The notes beneath the pieces were generated by a model. It was given only the letters and a program-made list of their open reading frames with translations. It did no database searches and was not told the origin of the DNA. Positions 35,865 through 44,371 of a DNA stretch of 64,000 nt are shown here, in pieces. The first letter of the stretch is position 1. Every line of letters starts with the position of its first letter. This stretch comes from Shigella phage ESh32, in sequence record ON528742. The stretch is one strand, 5' to 3'. A program made the position numbers and the translations under genes.

Positions 35865-36010
35865 GTCCATTCATTGGTATTACAAGCGCTGCATTAGTAT
35901 CTGGTAGCATTTTACTGGCGGGTTTAGGCGTTGTTCCAGCCGTAGCAGGAGGTCTTCTTGCGTTCGGAATTCAACGTGTTATCATGACAGTTATCACAGT
36001 CATGCAGTAA
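35861..36010 (+). CDS. small membrane protein (49 aa)
   Basis: ATGA overlap with gp52 stop; followed by terminator. Confidence 0.45.
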   Translation: MSPFIGITSAALVSGSILLAGLGVVPAVAGGLLAFGIQRVIMTVITVMQ

Positions 36011-36066
36011 TTTTAGGGAGAGCCTCGGCTCTCCCTTTTTTATTTTAAAATTTTTTTCACAAAACG

Positions 36067-36096
36067 GTTTACAACCAAAGCATACTGTGGTACTAT
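36067..36096 (+). promoter_or_regulatory. early promoter (GTTTAC, 18 bp, TACTAT)
   Basis: consensus hexamers. Confidence 0.6.
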
Positions 36097-36137
36097 ACAA
36101 CTATCAACTACTGATACAGAATTACGGAGATTAGAAA

Positions 36138-36773
36138 ATGTCTAAAGTAACTTACATCATCAAAGCTTCTAACGATGTTCTGAATGAAAAAACTGCTGCG
36201 ATTTTAATTACTATTGCTAAGAAAGATTTCATTACAGCTGCAGAAGTTCGTGAGGTGCATCCATATTTAGGTAACGCAGTAGTTAATAGTAATATTGGGG
36301 TATTGATTAAAAAAGGCCTGGTGGAGAAATCTGGTGATGGATTAATCATTACAGGTGAAGCTCAGGATATTATTTCAAATGCAGCAACTTTATACGCACA
36401 GGAAAATGCTCCGGAACTGCTGAAAAAACGAGCAACTCGTAAAGCTCGTGAGATTACTTCCGATATGGAAGAAGATAAAGACCTCATGTTAAAACTTTTA
36501 GATGAAAATGGATTTGTTCTTAAAAAGGTTGAAACTTACCGCAGTAACTATCTCGCTATTTTAGAAAAACGTACTCACGGAATTCGTAATTTTGAAATTA
36601 ACAACAATGGAAATATGCGAATTTTTGGATACAAAATGATGGAACATCATATTCAGAAATTTACTGATATCGGAATGTCATGTAAAATCGCTAAAAACGG
36701 TAATGTGTATCTTGACATTAAACGCTCGGCAGAAAACATTGAAGCTGTAATCACTGTAGCATCTGAACTGTGA
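36138..36773 (+). CDS. motA: middle transcription activator MotA
   Basis: 211 aa, recognised sequence. Confidence 0.9.
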   Translation: MSKVTYIIKASNDVLNEKTAAILITIAKKDFITAAEVREVHPYLGNAVVNSNIGVLIKKGLVEKSGDGLIITGEAQDIISNAATLYAQENAPELLKKRATRKAREITSDMEEDKDLMLKLLDENGFVLKKVETYRSNYLAILEKRTHGIRNFEINNNGNMRIFGYKMMEHHIQKFTDIGMSCKIAKNGNVYLDIKRSAENIEAVITVASEL

Positions 36774-36783
36774 GGAATAAATA

Positions 36784-37113
36784 ATGAACAAGTTAGAAAT
36801 TGTTAATGAACTTCGTCGTTGCGCAGAACCTACTCAAGAGGGTTGGGATATTTGGTACCATGGAGCTTATCTTGGAACTATCGTAAAGATTAAGACTGGT
36901 AAATACATGATTATTCGTGAAAGTAAAGATGCTCCAGTAGGTATTCGCAATAATTTTATGGCAGCGATAAGTTCATTTACGGATGCAGCTTACGAAATTT
37001 ACCTTGCCGATTATAAAGAATTCCAGGAATCTCAACCAGTTATTCGTTCAATTGGTGTCAACAAAGCTCAGCAGAAAACTTTGTGGCAGCGTATTAAAGG
37101 ATGGTTTAAATGA
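36784..37113 (+). CDS. hypothetical protein (109 aa)
   Basis: ORF. Confidence 0.55.
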
Positions 37114-37571
37114 ACCCATTTATTAATCGTTTAAAAATGCTGAATGTGCCTTTATCTCGTGAGACTCCGGAGAGTCTTGTTCAAAAATTTAAAGCGCATG
37201 GTTATAAATGCACAGAAGAAGATATTCTGAAAGAAGTTCCTGAAATCTGTTGGCAGACTGCATACTGGGATGAAAATCAAAAGTATCAACGACGAATTGT
37301 CTGTGCAGCTAATCGTTTTAAATTAAAAGATGGACGAACTCTTATTATTCCAGGTGCTCGTCATTATTCTAAAGATATGGCAGAAGTTTTAGATGTAGTT
37401 AAACCTCAGTTAGTTACTCAACAAGTTTGTGATGATGACCAAGGGTTTATTGACCAATATAGTAATTATTGGACACGTGAAGAAGCAATGATTATTGCAA
37501 CTTATGCTGGGCAGGTGCGTATTGAACGTGGTGGTAGTGAAAAAGAACTTTACTCTGAGGACCTTTACTAA
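37110..37571 (+). CDS. hypothetical protein (153 aa)
   Basis: ORF. Confidence 0.55.
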
Positions 37572-37867
37572 TGAATATTAAAAAGTTTCAAATTGATGGA
37601 ATTAAGAATCAAATCCAGGCGTTGGAATATGCCAATAAAATGATGTCAACTAATTGGGGAATTTATGCTAATGAGCCTGCATTTCAGTTTTGTGATATGG
37701 AATTAACTAAAAAGCTTGTAGGAAAAGATTATGTGTGTCCATTTAGTTCTCCAGTAAATGGAATGCTAAAACCTGCTTTACGCGATCTTTATATTGCGAT
37801 GAACGAAGAGATGATAAAAGAGATAAAACGTCAACTGAAGGTGATTCAATTTGGCCAGGGAAATTAA
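37571..37867 (+). CDS. hypothetical protein (98 aa)
   Basis: ORF. Confidence 0.55.
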   Translation: MNIKKFQIDGIKNQIQALEYANKMMSTNWGIYANEPAFQFCDMELTKKLVGKDYVCPFSSPVNGMLKPALRDLYIAMNEEMIKEIKRQLKVIQFGQGN

Positions 37868-38069
37868 TTCAAAATCTGATTATTTTAATTCTCTCAATGA
37901 TAAAGATAAAAATCTAATACGGCATTTTATTGTTGAGATGGGATATACCGATACAAACGATTTAAGAGAACATATATTTGAATGTGGTGTAGCTAAAAAG
38001 TTTTCATTCACATGCAAATGTTTAAGAGAGGTAATTCAGCATTATGAACAATTTAGTCGCAAAACATAA
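37851..38069 (+). CDS. hypothetical protein (72 aa)
   Basis: ORF. Confidence 0.45.
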   Translation: MAREINSKSDYFNSLNDKDKNLIRHFIVEMGYTDTNDLREHIFECGVAKKFSFTCKCLREVIQHYEQFSRKT

Positions 38070-38152
38070 TTTTAATAAAGCTTCTGTTCATAAGGATAAG
38101 AAGAAAGCGTTTAAAGAATCTAATCGCAAACAGAAACATAAGGGGAAGGTCT

Positions 38153-38431
38153 ATGATTATTGATTCTCAGTCCGTGGTTCAATACACAATCAAAATTGAT
38201 ATTCTAGAAAAGCTATATAAGTTTCTACCAAATTTATACCACTCAATTGTTAATGAATTAGTTGAAGAACTACATCTTGAGAATAATGATTTCTTGATTG
38301 GAACTTATAAAGACCTCTCAAAAGCAGGATATTTTTATGTAATTCCAGCTCCAGGAAAAAGTATTGATGATGTATTAAAAACTATAATGATTTACGTCCA
38401 TGATTACGAAATTGAAGATTATTTCGAATGA
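38153..38431 (+). CDS. arn: anti-restriction protein Arn
   Basis: 92 aa; synteny next to asiA. Confidence 0.75.
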   Translation: MIIDSQSVVQYTIKIDILEKLYKFLPNLYHSIVNELVEELHLENNDFLIGTYKDLSKAGYFYVIPAPGKSIDDVLKTIMIYVHDYEIEDYFE

Positions 38432-38580
38432 GTCATAATCTTGAAATGGTAATCGAGCATAATGTAGCTCAGGAACGTGAGTCGTTCAAGGAATTCGTAG
38501 AAAAAATTTTTGAAGAAAATAACACAGACCAGTTTACAAATCAAGCGTCTGATGATATTATAACAAAGTCAACTAATTGA
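38428..38580 (+). CDS. hypothetical protein (50 aa)
   Basis: ATGA overlap. Confidence 0.4.
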   Translation: MSHNLEMVIEHNVAQERESFKEFVEKIFEENNTDQFTNQASDDIITKSTN

Positions 38581-38592
38581 GTGGTATAGTTA

Positions 38593-38865
38593 ATGAATAA
38601 AAATATTGATACAGTTCGTGAAATTATTACTGTTGCGTCTATTTTGATTAAATTTTCCAGAGAAGATATTGTTGAGAATCGTGCTAATTTTATTGCATTT
38701 CTGAATGAGATTGGAGTAACGCATGAAGGTAGAAAATTAAATCAGAATTCATTCCGTAAAATTGTTTCTGAATTAACCCAAGAAGATAAGAAAACCCTCA
38801 TCGACGAATTCAACGAGGGTTTTGAGGGTGTATATCGATATCTAGAGATGTATACAAACAAATAA
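38593..38865 (+). CDS. asiA: anti-sigma-70 factor AsiA
   Basis: 90 aa, recognised sequence. Confidence 0.9.
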   Translation: MNKNIDTVREIITVASILIKFSREDIVENRANFIAFLNEIGVTHEGRKLNQNSFRKIVSELTQEDKKTLIDEFNEGFEGVYRYLEMYTNK

Positions 38866-39522
38866 TTATTTAGCCCTTCCTAATATTCTGGCCGCCTGAG
38901 AACATATTGATTCAAGGCGGTCATTACTTATATGATCATTTCTATACCAGTACATGGTTATTGTTCCAGCATAGATGTTATCCAAATTAAAATATGGACA
39001 ACTGTACATGTAGTTTATTTCGGGAGTAGGCTTTTTAGTTGGTAAAAAAGCAAATTTTGAGTTGGAATAATAATGACGTCCATTTAAATGAACTGTATAT
39101 TCATCCATAGTTTTATCAACAGGATATCCTCCAAGTGATTTTTCACTTATTGTTGAAGGTAATTTTCCTTCATATGCTATAATATCAACAAAATAGTTTA
39201 AGTTTTTAGGGCGGAAAGAATACACCGCACTAAAGTCTGCCTCAGATGATATGTGAACTATCTGGAGTTGTTCCAGGGCGACAGATTCAAAGCGTGCGTT
39301 TCTTTCCTTTTCAATAATTTCACTGTATGTTTCATACTTTGATTGCTTATAGTACTCAAAGAAACTATCTCCCCTATACCAAACAATCGCCATCATAAAT
39401 AAAAGAATTACGACAGCTACCCGGGAAGCAAGAACTTTCCCGGTAGCGTTATCTTTGAACAAGCGATCTAGAACACCAAATAGAATATCAGAGGGCGAAA
39501 ATGATATTCTAGGTGCTGCCAT
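38866..39522 (-). CDS. t: holin T
   Basis: 218 aa, single N-terminal TM, recognised sequence. Confidence 0.92.
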   Translation of the reverse strand: MAAPRISFSPSDILFGVLDRLFKDNATGKVLASRVAVVILLFMMAIVWYRGDSFFEYYKQSKYETYSEIIEKERNARFESVALEQLQIVHISSEADFSAVYSFRPKNLNYFVDIIAYEGKLPSTISEKSLGGYPVDKTMDEYTVHLNGRHYYSNSKFAFLPTKKPTPEINYMYSCPYFNLDNIYAGTITMYWYRNDHISNDRLESICSQAARILGRAK

Positions 39523-39552
39523 AGACCCTCCTTTTAAGGATATTTATTCAAA

Positions 39553-40329
39553 TTATACTCTTGGACCATATATTGCTCCAACATTTATCCACGTTGGAGC
39601 AGACCCTATAACAGCATAACCAGCATCGCCGCCATTATATTCAGATCCTTGACCGCGAATATTGCATCTACCTCCCGCGGAACCTACTTCACCACCGTTT
39701 CCACCATTATAGATACCATTCACGGATCCTGAGCCAGGTGCAGAAATAGTACCGCCAGTCGCTCCTGATTGCATATCAATAGATCCGCCAGGTGCACCAA
39801 ACGGACGCCCACCGCCGCCGCCAAAGGTCAATCTCATTTGTGAAAAAGGAGAATAATATCCGCCGCCGCCGCCGCCACCGCCGCCTGCAATAGCTCCACC
39901 ATTATTAATTCTTAGTCTCCCACCAATATCGTTTTGAATACAATGACCTCCAGCTGAGCCAGGACTATTGCTACCGCCATTACCGCCACGACCATACATC
40001 GTTACGCCGTGTATATTCAACTGAACATATTCATTGGGTGTATCTCCATACATGAAGAATAAAGGAACATCTTTAGAATATGATACTAAATCTCCAGTGA
40101 TATTAAACACTATAGGTGCACTACCTGCCTCAAAACATCTATCTCGGAACCATTGACCATTGAAGTTATGGTCTGCTCCAAGCGTGTGAATTATTTCAAC
40201 AGATCGACCTATCATATTACTCATCCAAAACGGAATTCCCATTCTCAATCTCTGCGCGGCACCACCCATCCAATTTTGTCCTGTATTAACTACTGCAGAC
40301 GATCCTACCCACGGTCCTGTTACTGCCAT
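39553..40329 (-). CDS. 38: tail fibre adhesin gp38, T2/T6 type with glycine-rich motifs
   Basis: 258 aa from ATG after GGAGG; poly-Gly blocks separated by variable segments. Confidence 0.85.
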
Positions 40330-40360
40330 ATAAACCTCCAAGGGGCCGAAGCCCCTCTTA

Positions 40361-43300
40361 TTATTTTAACAATGATTTAACTAATGCTTTAAGTTCTTCA
40401 ATTTCTGATTTAAGTTCCGCAATTTCTGCAGTATGCTCATTGATTGCAGCTGTATTTAAACCAATTACACCGTTATAGTTCAAACGAAGTAAAGCTTCAC
40501 CATCCGGGTCGCCTTCAACTAATTCTGGTAAAATAGCTTGAACTTCTTGAGCAATTAACCCAGCGTTTGGTTCCCATTTCTGATTGCCTTCTTCGTCCGT
40601 TCCACGTTTCTGCATATAAGTGTAACCGTTAATTTTAGAAAGCTTCTGAGAAGCATTTTCAAATTTAACGAGGTCTTTTTTAACACGAATATCAGAACGG
40701 ACATAAACATCACGGACAAACGTTGAATAACTATCATTTGCCTGAACGAGATGCCCATGAGAAACGATAGCTCTTCCAACTTCTGTCCAAAAAGCACCGG
40801 TTGAATCCCAAAGCCCAGGATGAGATTGATAGCCTGCTCCCCAGTTTGCAATATGTATACCATTGGCAACCATATTGATTCGGCCGTCACCGCCATGAAC
40901 TAACCCAGTGTCATTATCACCAATAACAACGCATGCGCCTGTCCATGCAGGGTCACCTCCACCAGCTGATAATCTTACTCCAGCTTTAACCATGTCAGGA
41001 ACGTACATGTTTCCATTATGGTGGAATTCGAAGATAGCTTGCGGATCGCTAGCATTTTCCTGATTACCTACACGGATAATACCTTGTGCCCAGTTATTAG
41101 TAATGCGTCGCATACCGAAATCAACACCAGATACGTACCCTTCATTAGTAATAACAGATTTTCCTTTAATAATAGGATAATAGCAGTCATTGCCGACACT
41201 ACCAAAATCCACAAATATAGGAGCTTCTTGATGCCATTGGTTTCCCCAGTCACCAGCTTGATGCGCAGTCCATTGAGTCCCATTTATATGGAGACGATCG
41301 CGGTTAAAGTTAAATGTTGCAGCACCTTGTGGAATCAGCGCGATTTCACCAGTAGAGTTAATTTGCACAGCCCCATTGGTTTTATAGTTGTAGAATGATA
41401 CGGTATTATCAGCGCCGCCTTTACCAATATACCATTGATTTTCTCCACCGCCAGTAGAAAGAAGGTAGCTTGCATCAGTCGCTGAAGGCGCAGCTAAGTT
41501 AATAGCATCAGAATCTCTTCTAATAATCAACTTGCCGGTCATCGTGTCGCCTTCTTTCGAAACACGAGTCGCAATAGCATCGCGAATATTAGTTACGTCG
41601 CCAGCTGAAGTAAACGTTTTCCAGATATCAGACCAGATATTACCATTGCGAGCAATAGTAGCTTCACCGCCGCCGACAGCAACGTTATCTGGGAAGTTAA
41701 CAGTACCGTCTTGATTAAAACGAGACGTATGGCCTTGTGAACCATCTTCTTTCAGATGATGAATAACGAATGTACCCGAATTAATTTCAGTACCTAAAGA
41801 CCAAACGCATTTACCGTTTAAGAATTTCTGTTTAACAATAGGATAATATTTGCTTACAGCATCATCATCGATTTCCTGGAAAATAGGAGCCGCTTGAGCA
41901 TATTGAATGTCATAACCGCCGGCACCCGCTCCATGACCAACAAATTTAATATAACCGTTAGCAGCGAACGTATTGTAACTTGATTGTAAATCTGGAATAG
42001 TAACTTTACCAGTATCTAAAGCCATACTAAACGGGCGAAGTGGACCGATATCGCCGTGTTTACCTTCACCGTAAGCAGTTGGAATAATATGAAGACTACC
42101 TTCTGAACGTCTAAAAATGGCTCCATAATCTGCGTTCCAAATACGAAGCGCATTCACTGCTCCAGATGAAATTTCGCCTGTTGTGTGAACTCCTCTATTT
42201 CCAGCAGTAACACCAGATGATTCAAATGAACCGTTAACGTTCATTTCTACTTCACCTGTTGTAAGTCTTTGAATATAGCTCATCCAACTAGTTGCATCAG
42301 AAATTTCCATGACATTTTTACGATTACCTACGCTAGGATTAGTAAACGTATTGCCCCAAACGGAAATTGTCATATTATCAACTGAACTGCTACCAGTTGT
42401 GTTACCTCTAAACAACAGCGTAGAAGAATTATTTCTACCATCGATATTAACCGAACCACCAATAACGTCAATATTGCCTGGAGTAACTAACAAACCGCCA
42501 TGAGTATTAATGTTTGTGGTACCCTTACCGCGGAAATAGTGATGATAGTTACCGCCTTGATAATATCCTAAAAGAGTTTGACCGTCGCCGTATGCGTTAT
42601 TATCATGGTAAGTAACAACAGTGGCCAAAGCATAGTTTTCTGTCGGCGGCGTTGTCATAAGAATCCCGTCCGGAGAATAACCCATAACCATTTTTCTAAG
42701 GCTTTGTGTTTCCGCAGGGCCGTAGATGAAAGTTCTTGTTCCATTGTTTACTGTATGAAAATATCCGTCCTGATGCCATTTAAATCCGGTGTCATTATCA
42801 CCAAGAGCAATTGAGGCCGTTCCTAATTCAGAATATCCTTTAGAGCCACCCGGAAGACCTACAGAAATAGAATGACCGGCTTTCAATCCACCTGACCAGG
42901 TAAACGACCAAAGATATGCGTCAAGTCCATCTCCAGCATACCAAGTTATTCCATCATTATCTTTAACTTCATGGAAAATGCCAGAACCGACTGCATTACG
43001 CATAATACGGAGATGGTTAATAGCCGTTTCGCTTTCTGTCAATGGAGTGTTATTTGCTAATGAATAGATATCATAATCTCCTGTCTTCTTCCCATTTGTA
43101 ATAACTTTGTCGGTCAGAATTTGCGGAGACGAAATAGATTTCCATGCTGATACTTCGGGTGAAGTAAATAGGCCACTGCCTGAAAATGCATAAGTGCTTT
43201 CGCTACCAGCGGCGTAGTCTTGAACCCTGATATTAAGTACTTGTGTAGTTAAACCATCATTAGCCGGGGCATAAATGATTCCACGTTCGCGACTATTGCC

Positions 43301-43675
43301 ATCGAAAAAACGAACATGCGCTGTACCTGAGCTTTTTGTAATAAGTTCTCCGCCTTCAGTCATAATTTGCCCGGCGGCAATAATATCGCGAGTTACTCGA
43401 GCAATACCAGTTAAATTAAAATTACCTGTCTGAGTGAAGGTGCCATTTAAAGTATAATCGCCAGTTTGGTTATAATTACCTGTATGAATAACATTCCCGT
43501 CAATACTACCGCCTTTAGCAAAACCCAGATCAATAATATTTCCTTGGTCATCTTTAGTAAAAAGTACACGGTCTTTTAAGTTTATAGCCAATTCACCTTC
43601 GGCTAATACTGAAGCGGCAGGACGTGCTCCTGCAGTTTTGCTTCTTTTAAATTGTATTTGTTTTAAAGTAGCCAT
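40361..43675 (-). CDS. 37: long tail fibre distal subunit gp37 with C-terminal chaperone-like domain
   Basis: 1104 aa; C-terminus [15 protein letters not shown]... plus coiled coil. Confidence 0.9.
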
Positions 43676-44363: not shown

Positions 44364-44371
44364 TATTTATA
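44364..44371 (-). promoter_or_regulatory. late promoter TATAAATA for gene 36
   Basis: TATTTATA on + strand upstream of gene 36 start. Confidence 0.65.

Follow-up and report, generated by a model that had tools for sequence, protein, structure and literature searches.

A glycine tract in the T6-type adhesin gp38 of Shigella phage ESh32: probable polyglycine-II helix and candidate site of in-frame indels and recombination

The gp38 locus

The analyzed window comprises 64,000 nucleotides of Shigella phage ESh32 (sequence record ON528742). On its minus strand, the gene of the adhesin gp38 is situated between gene 37 and the holin gene t; this canonical order 37-38-t was found in every relative fetched as well. 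The relevant features are listed below with their coordinates in the window and the evidence for each.

38866..39522, minus strand: holin gene t, directly downstream of gp38 (Pfam Phage_holin_T, E=2e-117)
39553..40329 including stop, minus strand: coding sequence of gp38, receptor-recognising adhesin of the T6 type, 258 aa (ORF, translation, Pfam/PDB/PHROG matches)
39808..39822, minus strand: Gly tract 2, GGC GGC GGC GGT GGG, Gly170-174 of the invariant GGGGGRPFG motif (translation)
39823..39858, minus strand: putative loop B, hypervariable segment between the Gly tracts, aa 158-169 (position relative to loop B of PP01)
39859..39885, minus strand: Gly tract 1, GGC GGC GGT (GGC)5 GGA, Gly149-157 (sequence and S16 alignment)
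39868, minus strand: synonymous T>C, which turns codon 154 (gene nt 462) from GGT into GGC and makes the (GGC)5 run (relatives carry T)
[quoted passage not shown]
40340..40357, minus strand: intercistronic stem-loop (loop UUCG), downstream of the gp37 stop and upstream of the Shine-Dalgarno sequence of gp38 (MFE fold)
40361..43675, minus strand: gp37, distal long-tail-fibre subunit of 1104 aa, its tip capped by gp38 (ORF and Pfam)

In the minus-strand ORF translation, gp38 starts with the ATG at 40327-40329, with GGAGG seven bases upstream. The mechanical ORF list reaches further to a TTG at 40341, which would give 262 aa, but we prefer the shorter version because the 258-aa product exactly equals the deposited proteins, i.e. 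the entries of Shigella phage ESh32 and Escherichia phage vB_Eco_CP. The gene is 100% identical at the DNA level to that of Shigella phage ESh34, and the surrounding 20 kb are 98.0% identical to this phage. The neighboring gp37 contains the Pfam domains Gp34_trimer and Peptidase_S74, the latter at aa 994-1053 as C-terminal intramolecular chaperone domain. The intercistronic stem-loop has a 7-bp stem in the MFE structure, while its z-score of -2.66 refers to the whole 56-nt fold; the homologous position in phage G2133 is annotated as putative terminator. The late-promoter motif TATAAATA was not enriched and had no copy directly before gp38. One copy on the strand of gp38 was found upstream of gene 37, at 44364-44371.

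An earlier note on this DNA had claimed a T2/T6-type adhesin and not a chaperone of the T4 type, and the database searches bear this out. The Pfam models GP38 (PF05268; 240.1 bits, E=3e-71) and Gp38_N (PF21721; 76.6 bits, E=1e-21; cut-off 25 bits in both cases), the family phrog_2056 ('tail fiber protein; host specificity', E=1e-109, full length) as well as the solved structures of gp38 from phages PP01 (9V85_A, E=1e-78) and S16 (6F45_D, E=7e-53) were matched; thus, it is the adhesin families to which the protein aligns over its full length. A search of the protein against NCBIfam returned no model. T4 gp38, an assembly chaperone that is not part of the virion, occupies the same slot downstream of gene 37 but is without Gly-rich motifs, polyglycine-II (PGII) domain and receptor binding. 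The 181-position profile phrog_1121 matches aa 1-59 of our gp38 only; presumably it represents the T4-type gp38, and the N-terminal approximately 60 residues of the two proteins appear to be related.

Structural position of the glycine tracts and probable receptor

The authors of the S16 gp38 structure described an N-terminal three-helix attachment domain, the tryptophans of which plug into gp37, then a beta-helix, and finally ten PGII helices arranged as a sandwich of three layers, with the hypervariable segments making up the distal loops. The longest run, 151-GGGGGGGG-158, makes up helix 3, a long helix at the center whose H-bond network is saturating. Both S16 (6F45) and PP01 (9V85) gp38 are whole-length homologues of the protein studied here, which by this homology would have the attachment domain of three helices, the beta-helix and also the PGII sandwich with the longest Gly run as helix 3. 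However, they bind OmpC, carry other loops and have 8 Gly in the helix-3 run compared to 9 here. The residues W7, W20 and W35 of our gp38 align with W7, W20 and W36 of S16, and Trp7 and Trp20 are nearly invariant in the family alignment. Further invariant positions, separated by variable stretches, are G113-G118, G127-128, G150-154, G170-174 and RP175-176. The poly-Gly blocks quoted in the earlier note were both found in the protein, at aa 149-159 and aa 170-182.

Gly149-157 aligns with S16 151-158, i.e. PGII helix 3, and therefore the repeat would encode a core strand of the sandwich. A PGII-sandwich fold with Gly149-157 in a central position is supported by the homology to two solved structures and by the descriptions of their authors. 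In PP01, loop B follows directly after the Gly run and is needed for OmpC-dependent infection. By its position relative to this loop, the segment aa 158-169, which is identical in FL23, T4_ev151 and RB27, is predicted to be a distal receptor-contact loop. Accepting these alignments, tract 1 would be a structural core strand leading into a receptor loop rather than a variable segment. Tract 2, on the other side of loop B, is the direct-repeat partner of tract 1.

Regarding the receptor, the closest comparison is with the Tsx-binding adhesins of T6, FL23/FL44, RB5 and RB27, which belong to the same length class, have the same five Gly-rich motifs and stand in the same gene order 37-38-t. Over the specificity domain (aa 113-258), gp38 shares 145/146 residues with FL23/FL44 (99%), 138/146 with RB27 and RB5, and 140/146 with T6 (96%). 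The four or five loops are near-identical to those of T6 and FL23, the latter differing by one loop-region substitution (D235). In contrast, the N-terminal attachment region differs from that of T6 (85/115 identical), because the gp37 partner is a different one, and the (GGC)5 run belongs to the lineage of our gp38 only. The receptor of T6-like adhesins is Tsx, and phages FL23 and FL44 do not plate on a tsx deletion mutant. Since its specificity domain is near-identical to that of the Tsx-dependent FL23, it is most probable that our gp38 uses its distal loops to bind Tsx, the nucleoside channel of E. coli.

Codon structure and age of the repeat

In codon register (39859-39885), tract 1 reads GGC GGC GGT GGC GGC GGC GGC GGC GGA and encodes nine Gly; TRF placed it at 39860-39885 with a period of 3 and 8.7 copies. 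The repeat had been described before as (CCG)5 CCA (CCG)2 on the plus strand, which is correct for the sequence, whereas the position was about one base off (39860-39883, not 39861-39886). According to the tandem-repeat scan, the 64 kb window has no other tandem repeat with a period of 3, and matches to (GGC)5 with up to two mismatches occur inside gp38 only, compared to 0.01 matches expected from shuffles. For a window with a GC content of 35%, such a repeat by far exceeds what chance would give. GGC makes up 16% of the Gly codons in the long ORFs of the window. At this frequency, at least seven GGC in nine codons have a chance of p ~ 7e-5 (hand calculation), while at the in-family frequency of 42% GGC the same richness has a chance of approximately 3%. 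The 33 distinct tract sequences of the family consist of GGT (50%) and GGC (42%), almost without GGA or GGG, and the share of GGY is 92% in the Gly tracts compared to 69% elsewhere in the same ORFs.

In the relatives, the order of GGC and GGT within tract 1 shifts freely, while the length is constant. Adjacent identical codons are rarer than expected (81 observed vs 103 ± 6.3; only 1 of 1000 within-tract shuffles was as low), a statistic which counts related sequences as independent. The longest run of identical codons is typically 2 in the family; with a run of 5, tract 1 ranks fourth of 33. Gene nt 462 is a T in vB_Eco_CP (99.6% nucleotide identity), T4_ev151, B1.1 and FL23. The first three of them read (GGC GGC GGT)2 GGC GGC followed by GGA or GGT, and FL23 has the T as well, but another GGC/GGT order earlier in the tract. 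Because the single T>C at nt 462 separates gp38 from its closest relatives, the near-perfect repeat is young: the (GGC)5 run is lineage-specific and one synonymous SNP old, and its purity is neither conserved nor selected.

Two mechanisms that could have made the tract variable were considered and dropped. Single-strand folding of the tract region was not significant (z = -1.57), which speaks against a hairpin-driven instability. For diversification by a DGR, no obvious reverse transcriptase was found when reading the list of ORFs at 36000-43000, and the variation in the tract is synonymous or consists of indels and is not adenine-directed.

Constraint on tract length and natural variants

The length survey was based on cluster representatives and members of a protein collection plus translated loci. 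Both anchors were present in 397 sequences, which yielded 122 distinct alleles of the segment from tract 1 via loop B to tract 2, with 49-93% identity to our gp38. The length of tract 1 was altered in five of the 122 alleles, namely P0070 (-3 Gly), P0164/P0166 (-2), P0187 (-2), P0113 (-5) and L021 (+3), and the spacing was otherwise constant within each loop-B type. Tract 2 had five Gly in 115/122 alleles. Differences in run length between gp38 types result from end substitutions in a fixed slot and not from indels. Moreover, when Gly-rich motifs (GRMs) or hypervariable segments (HVSs) of T6 gp38 were deleted by engineering, no viable phage resulted. The length of the tract is strongly constrained, and about 95% of the alleles have the modal value.

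Nevertheless, natural variants exist. Among the best 60 T6-type records listed, 57 have the 9-codon tract, and the Yersinia phages PYps14T and PYps32T and the E. coli phage AV121 have a tract slot of 12 codons. The four closest relatives of our gp38 all carry 9 Gly. PYps14T and AV121 are independent phages with an identical tract, (GGC GGC GGT)3 GGC GGC GGA, which encodes 12 Gly. The complete genomes of PYps14T (166,935 bp) and PYps15T (166,925 bp) do not differ by any substitution and have only three indels: the first is the 9-nt unit of tract 1, which in PYps15T reads (GGC GGC GGT)2 GGC GGC GGA and encodes 9 Gly; the second is a 3-nt Asn codon lost from a later gp38 loop of PYps15T; and the third affects a run of T (T5/T7) in the tk region. 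The expanded unit is one of 9 nt and not the triplet, and it corresponds to one turn of a PGII helix. In spot assays, PYps14T lysed 78/128 and PYps15T 85/128 strains of Y. pseudotuberculosis, a small gap in host range that may equally stem from the second gp38 indel. Besides the three cultured isolates with 12 residues, all records with an altered tract length are metagenome or WGS assemblies. Variants with ±1 Gly in tract 1 were seen neither among the 122 alleles nor among the 60 best-listed records.

Several other candidates were rejected. The HP3 record is frameshifted in the tract compared to HP3.1, yet the corresponding paper reports only two SNPs; hence, the frameshift is probably a sequencing error. 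The gp38 indels reported for PYps35T and PYps55T are not tract changes: a later loop has lost QYGN, GGQ is duplicated within the first Gly motif, and one Ser is affected after the tract. AV121 and G4500 do not form a second isogenic pair, because G4500, although the nearest genome, has a different gp38 type.

In-frame changes in the length of tract 1 are real, and they are viable in some phages. The earlier note had suggested slippage as a route to altered Gly numbers and had regarded missing length variation as evidence against it. In-frame variants do occur among the database records, which here take the place of the sequencing reads that the note had wanted to see compared, but the expansions comprise a 9-nt unit and not single Gly codons. 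As far as the databases allow, slippage is supported as the probable mutational mechanism behind the length variants.

The tracts as junctions of exchange

Our gp38 is 99.3% identical to that of B1.1 over gene nt 1-444 and only 71% from nt 472 on; a similar drop, from 98.6% to 73%, was observed between T4_ev151 and G2133. In both pairs the mosaic break is found at the 3' end of tract 1. As cited in later papers, Tetart, Desplats and Krisch (1998) proposed that gp38 alleles exchange at conserved Gly-rich motifs, and the junctions reported here fall exactly at tract 1. Exchange at Gly-rich motifs of gp38 has been used experimentally by Trojet et al. (2011).

Furthermore, the copy number of loop B varies. 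In two Yersinia phages, the tract together with loop B is present as an exact tandem duplication, which measures 51 nt in ZN18 and 54 nt in PYps47T and has a different junction register in each. In the 1.5 kb around gp38, PYps47T differs from PYps32T by a 45-nt indel and one SNP only, and the two genomes differ in length by exactly 45 bp. The authors of PYps47T noted the insertion without explanation; this phage lyses 52/128 strains compared to 78-87/128 for its siblings. The reciprocal deletions of loop B were found in three gp38 backgrounds (L080, L081/L082 and L083), and one loop-B-less allele was assembled independently from two samples with different assemblers. A junction search for more duplications gave a one-piece match for ZN18 only, which is a weak test given that the tool joins two pieces.

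Crossover for the swapping of loop cassettes and the duplication or deletion of loop B are the better-documented roles of the tract at the DNA level. The latter resembles the host-range (His-box) duplications in T4 gp37 of Tetart et al. (1996), as cited in later papers: a small receptor-binding segment is duplicated in tandem between conserved motifs. According to these citations, the two Tetart papers deal with allele exchange and His-box duplication in gp37, in contrast to tract slippage and loop-B copy change in gp38; the loop-B duplications were found in phages plating on Yersinia. Neither unit slippage in tract 1 between otherwise identical genomes nor a change in loop-B copy number bounded by two Gly tracts is described in the literature searched, which covers the field incompletely and does not extend to the 1987-1998 Henning/Krisch papers.

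Interpretation

Starting from what is demonstrated at the locus (gene identity, structural homology, length conservation, natural variants and mosaic junctions), we favor the following reading with a probability of roughly 0.6: gp38 is a T6-type adhesin and probable Tsx binder, its Gly run is structural, and the GGC repeat is an incidental hot spot of indels and recombination. Gly149-157 would be the central PGII helix of the three-layer sandwich that holds the receptor loops. The GGC-rich repeat would be a by-product of a long Gly run written in GGY codons, which the recent synonymous T>C made unusually pure in this lineage. Because the tract is a short repeat, it would be unstable at the DNA level: slippage by a unit would change the number of Gly in frame, the 3' end of tract 1 would be a favored crossover at which whole sets of loops are swapped between gp38 alleles, and unequal exchange between tract 1 and tract 2, 51-54 nt downstream, would duplicate or delete loop B. 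Selection would remove most of these products, so that the modal length is kept in the large majority of alleles, with viable exceptions such as 12 Gly, two copies of loop B and perhaps its complete absence. Such viable variants probably retune the reach and flexibility with which loop B is presented, and in this way tract length may affect host range.

A bolder version can only be put forward tentatively, and we regard it as rather doubtful. It states that the two GGY-coded Gly tracts form a built-in hot spot of in-frame indels, giving 9 to 12 Gly and zero, one or two copies of loop B, which outpaces point mutation, supplies standing host-range variation and would be a so far undescribed route.

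Among the alternatives, a purely structural role survives best, though we still consider it unlikely. According to this explanation, the fold dictates the number of Gly, all variants are sequencing artefacts or accidents of a deleterious or neutral kind, and host range changes via loop substitutions and cassette exchange only. It is in line with the strong conservation of length, with the non-viable GRM and HVS deletions of T6, with the probable error in HP3, with the fact that the known host-range changes concern a few HVS residues, and with the reduced number of strains lysed by PYps47T, the carrier of the duplication. However, while it may still hold as regards phenotype, it is weakened because cultured isolates carry variants: two laboratories have cultured phages with 12-residue alleles, three in total, loop B is duplicated in two cultured Yersinia isolates whose junctions differ, and two independent samples, processed with different assemblers, yielded the same allele without loop B.

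The opposite assumption, that the triplet repeat is selected as a hypermutable contingency locus and populations are always mixed in Gly number and host range, is even harder to maintain in this strong form. [quoted passage not shown] Bacterial SSR contingency loci likewise have a short tandem repeat within the coding sequence of a protein for surface recognition, and their length is naturally polymorphic. In gp38, however, the changes are in frame and there is no on/off switch, the repeat is short and usually interrupted, and neither purity nor length polymorphism is maintained, which makes this explanation unlikely. As mentioned above, the longest identical-codon run is typically 2 with GGC/GGT alternation above chance, a single synonymous SNP gave rise to the (GGC)5 run, the modal length is found in about 95% of alleles across 49-93% protein identity, no ±1 variants were seen among the alleles and records surveyed, and the expansions are of a 9-nt unit. 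Polymorphism is restricted to 5/122 alleles and to 3 of the best 60 isolate records listed, yet it occurs between two genomes with zero substitutions. Receptor switching by a change in length is without support.

A function at the level of RNA or translation, in which the GGC run causes ribosome pausing for co-translational PGII folding or forms a structured or regulatory RNA, is very improbable. In its favor, the tract is almost wholly GGY and avoids GGA and GGG, which would be compatible with avoidance of GGAGG-like Shine-Dalgarno sequences and G runs and with use of the abundant host tRNA-Gly(GCC). Against it, Rfam gave no match on either strand of 38800-41000, the folding of the tract region was not significant (z = -1.57), and no specific RNA sequence or structure appears to be maintained, because the GGC/GGT pattern varies among relatives.

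Hence, a structural Gly run with an incidentally unstable repeat remains our preferred reading, and it is necessary to state what is new in it. The gene is already in GenBank, and the family, the fold and the motif-mediated recombination have been published; gp38 itself offers nothing new, and its receptor Tsx is predictable. The slippery behavior of the Gly tracts as a hot spot is a modest new detail.

Implications for T-even phages

The adhesin gp38 is the main determinant of host range in most T-even phages and a target for the engineering of therapeutic phages. As a probable core helix, the Gly tract would not be a neutral linker. It is at tracts 1 and 2 that true in-frame indels concentrate, together with recombination junctions and errors of sequencing. 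If tract length or loop-B copy number indeed tunes binding, both would provide a simple handle for engineering and could explain in part the rapid drift of host range among otherwise identical isolates. If the bolder version is true, every large T-even population would hold adhesins with longer or shorter tracts and with a doubled or missing loop B, and the phages would possess a route of host-range tuning beside loop substitution and cassette swapping.

Rearrangements at the Gly tract

The 27-nt Gly tract of gp38 (tract 1, Gly149-157) coincides with breaks in sequence similarity between relatives. When the gp38 gene of vB_Eco-B1.1 (locus L070) was compared with window 39553-40329, the identity of approximately 99% fell to approximately 72% precisely where the tract ends on its 3' side, and the same drop at the same place was found between G2133 (L071) and T4_ev151 (L075). 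The two mosaic pairs are independent of each other. Moreover, the tract borders duplications and deletions of the adjacent hypervariable loop B (aa 158-169), located as follows within the loci of relatives.

L002:601-1434, Yersinia phage vB_YepM_ZN18: exact tandem duplication of Gly tract and loop B, 51 nt
L084:601-1437, PYps47T: exact tandem duplication of Gly tract and loop B, 54 nt
L080:1201-1917: intact gp38 ORF without loop B
L081:309-1037 and L082:143-871: intact gp38 ORF without loop B
L083:1201-1785: intact gp38 ORF without loop B

The junctions of both duplications lie within tracts of GGY glycine codons, and both carriers were isolated on Y. pseudotuberculosis. These duplications are reminiscent of those in gp37 of T4, which reportedly extended the host range to Yersinia. 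In the ORFs lacking loop B, which represent three gp38 backgrounds, the whole loop is absent and tract 1 is joined to tract 2 (Gly170-174); two independent samples each yielded an assembly of one such allele. Because engineered removal of loops from T6 gp38 reportedly abolishes viability, the loop-B-less alleles may be defective or use another receptor.

Besides tract 1, gp38 has further small in-frame repeats, in PYps55T and phage M1, and a 21-nt tandem repeat was found in the final codons of gp37. The latter encodes a heptad-like stretch of 14 residues with which the intramolecular chaperone domain ends.

L078:4168-4977, PYps55T gp38: a duplicated GGQ within the first Gly motif and one additional Ser directly after tract 1
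Protein P0029, phage M1 gp38: RYRYRY in loop B, a single RY in relatives
Window 40388-40428, gp37: 21-nt repeat, two copies, 90% match

Start and N-terminal module of gp38

The position of the Shine-Dalgarno sequence and exact database matches support the ATG at 40329 as the start of gp38, giving 258 aa, over the TTG at 40341 (262 aa) from an automated ORF listing; the two starts differ by window 40330-40341 (-). A stem-loop is situated upstream.

Window 40340-40357 (-): 7-bp stem with UUCG loop, after the stop codon of gp37 and before the Shine-Dalgarno sequence of gp38

The entire 56-nt fold containing it reached z = -2.66, and in G2133 a putative terminator is annotated at the matching spot. 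The second PHROG match of gp38 (window 39553-40329, minus strand), to the 'tail fiber adhesin' profile phrog_1121 with its 181 positions, is restricted to aa 1-59, which suggests that the protein has its N-terminal module in common with the short T4-type gp38.

Database variants and a natural near-isogenic pair

Variants of the Gly tract in databases should be regarded with caution, as the case of Escherichia phage HP3 illustrates. Its RefSeq gp38 (P0142) is frameshifted within the tract and comprises 187 aa, whereas gp38 of HP3.1 (P0143) is intact with 260 aa. An error in sequencing the repeat probably accounts for the frameshift, because the published paper gives only two SNPs between HP3 and HP3.1, both located elsewhere.

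The Yersinia phages PYps14T and PYps15T are independently named isolates without any substitution between their whole genomes (approximately 167 kb), which differ by three small indels.

PYps14T (MT526905) versus PYps15T (MT515752), whole genomes: loci L087/L086, L090/L091, L092/L093 and L094/L095

Two indels affect gp38, a 9-nt unit in the Gly tract and one Asn codon in a later loop, and the third lies in the tk region, at a T5/T7 run. Hence, nature provides a near-isogenic pair with which the effects of the gp38 indels can be tested.
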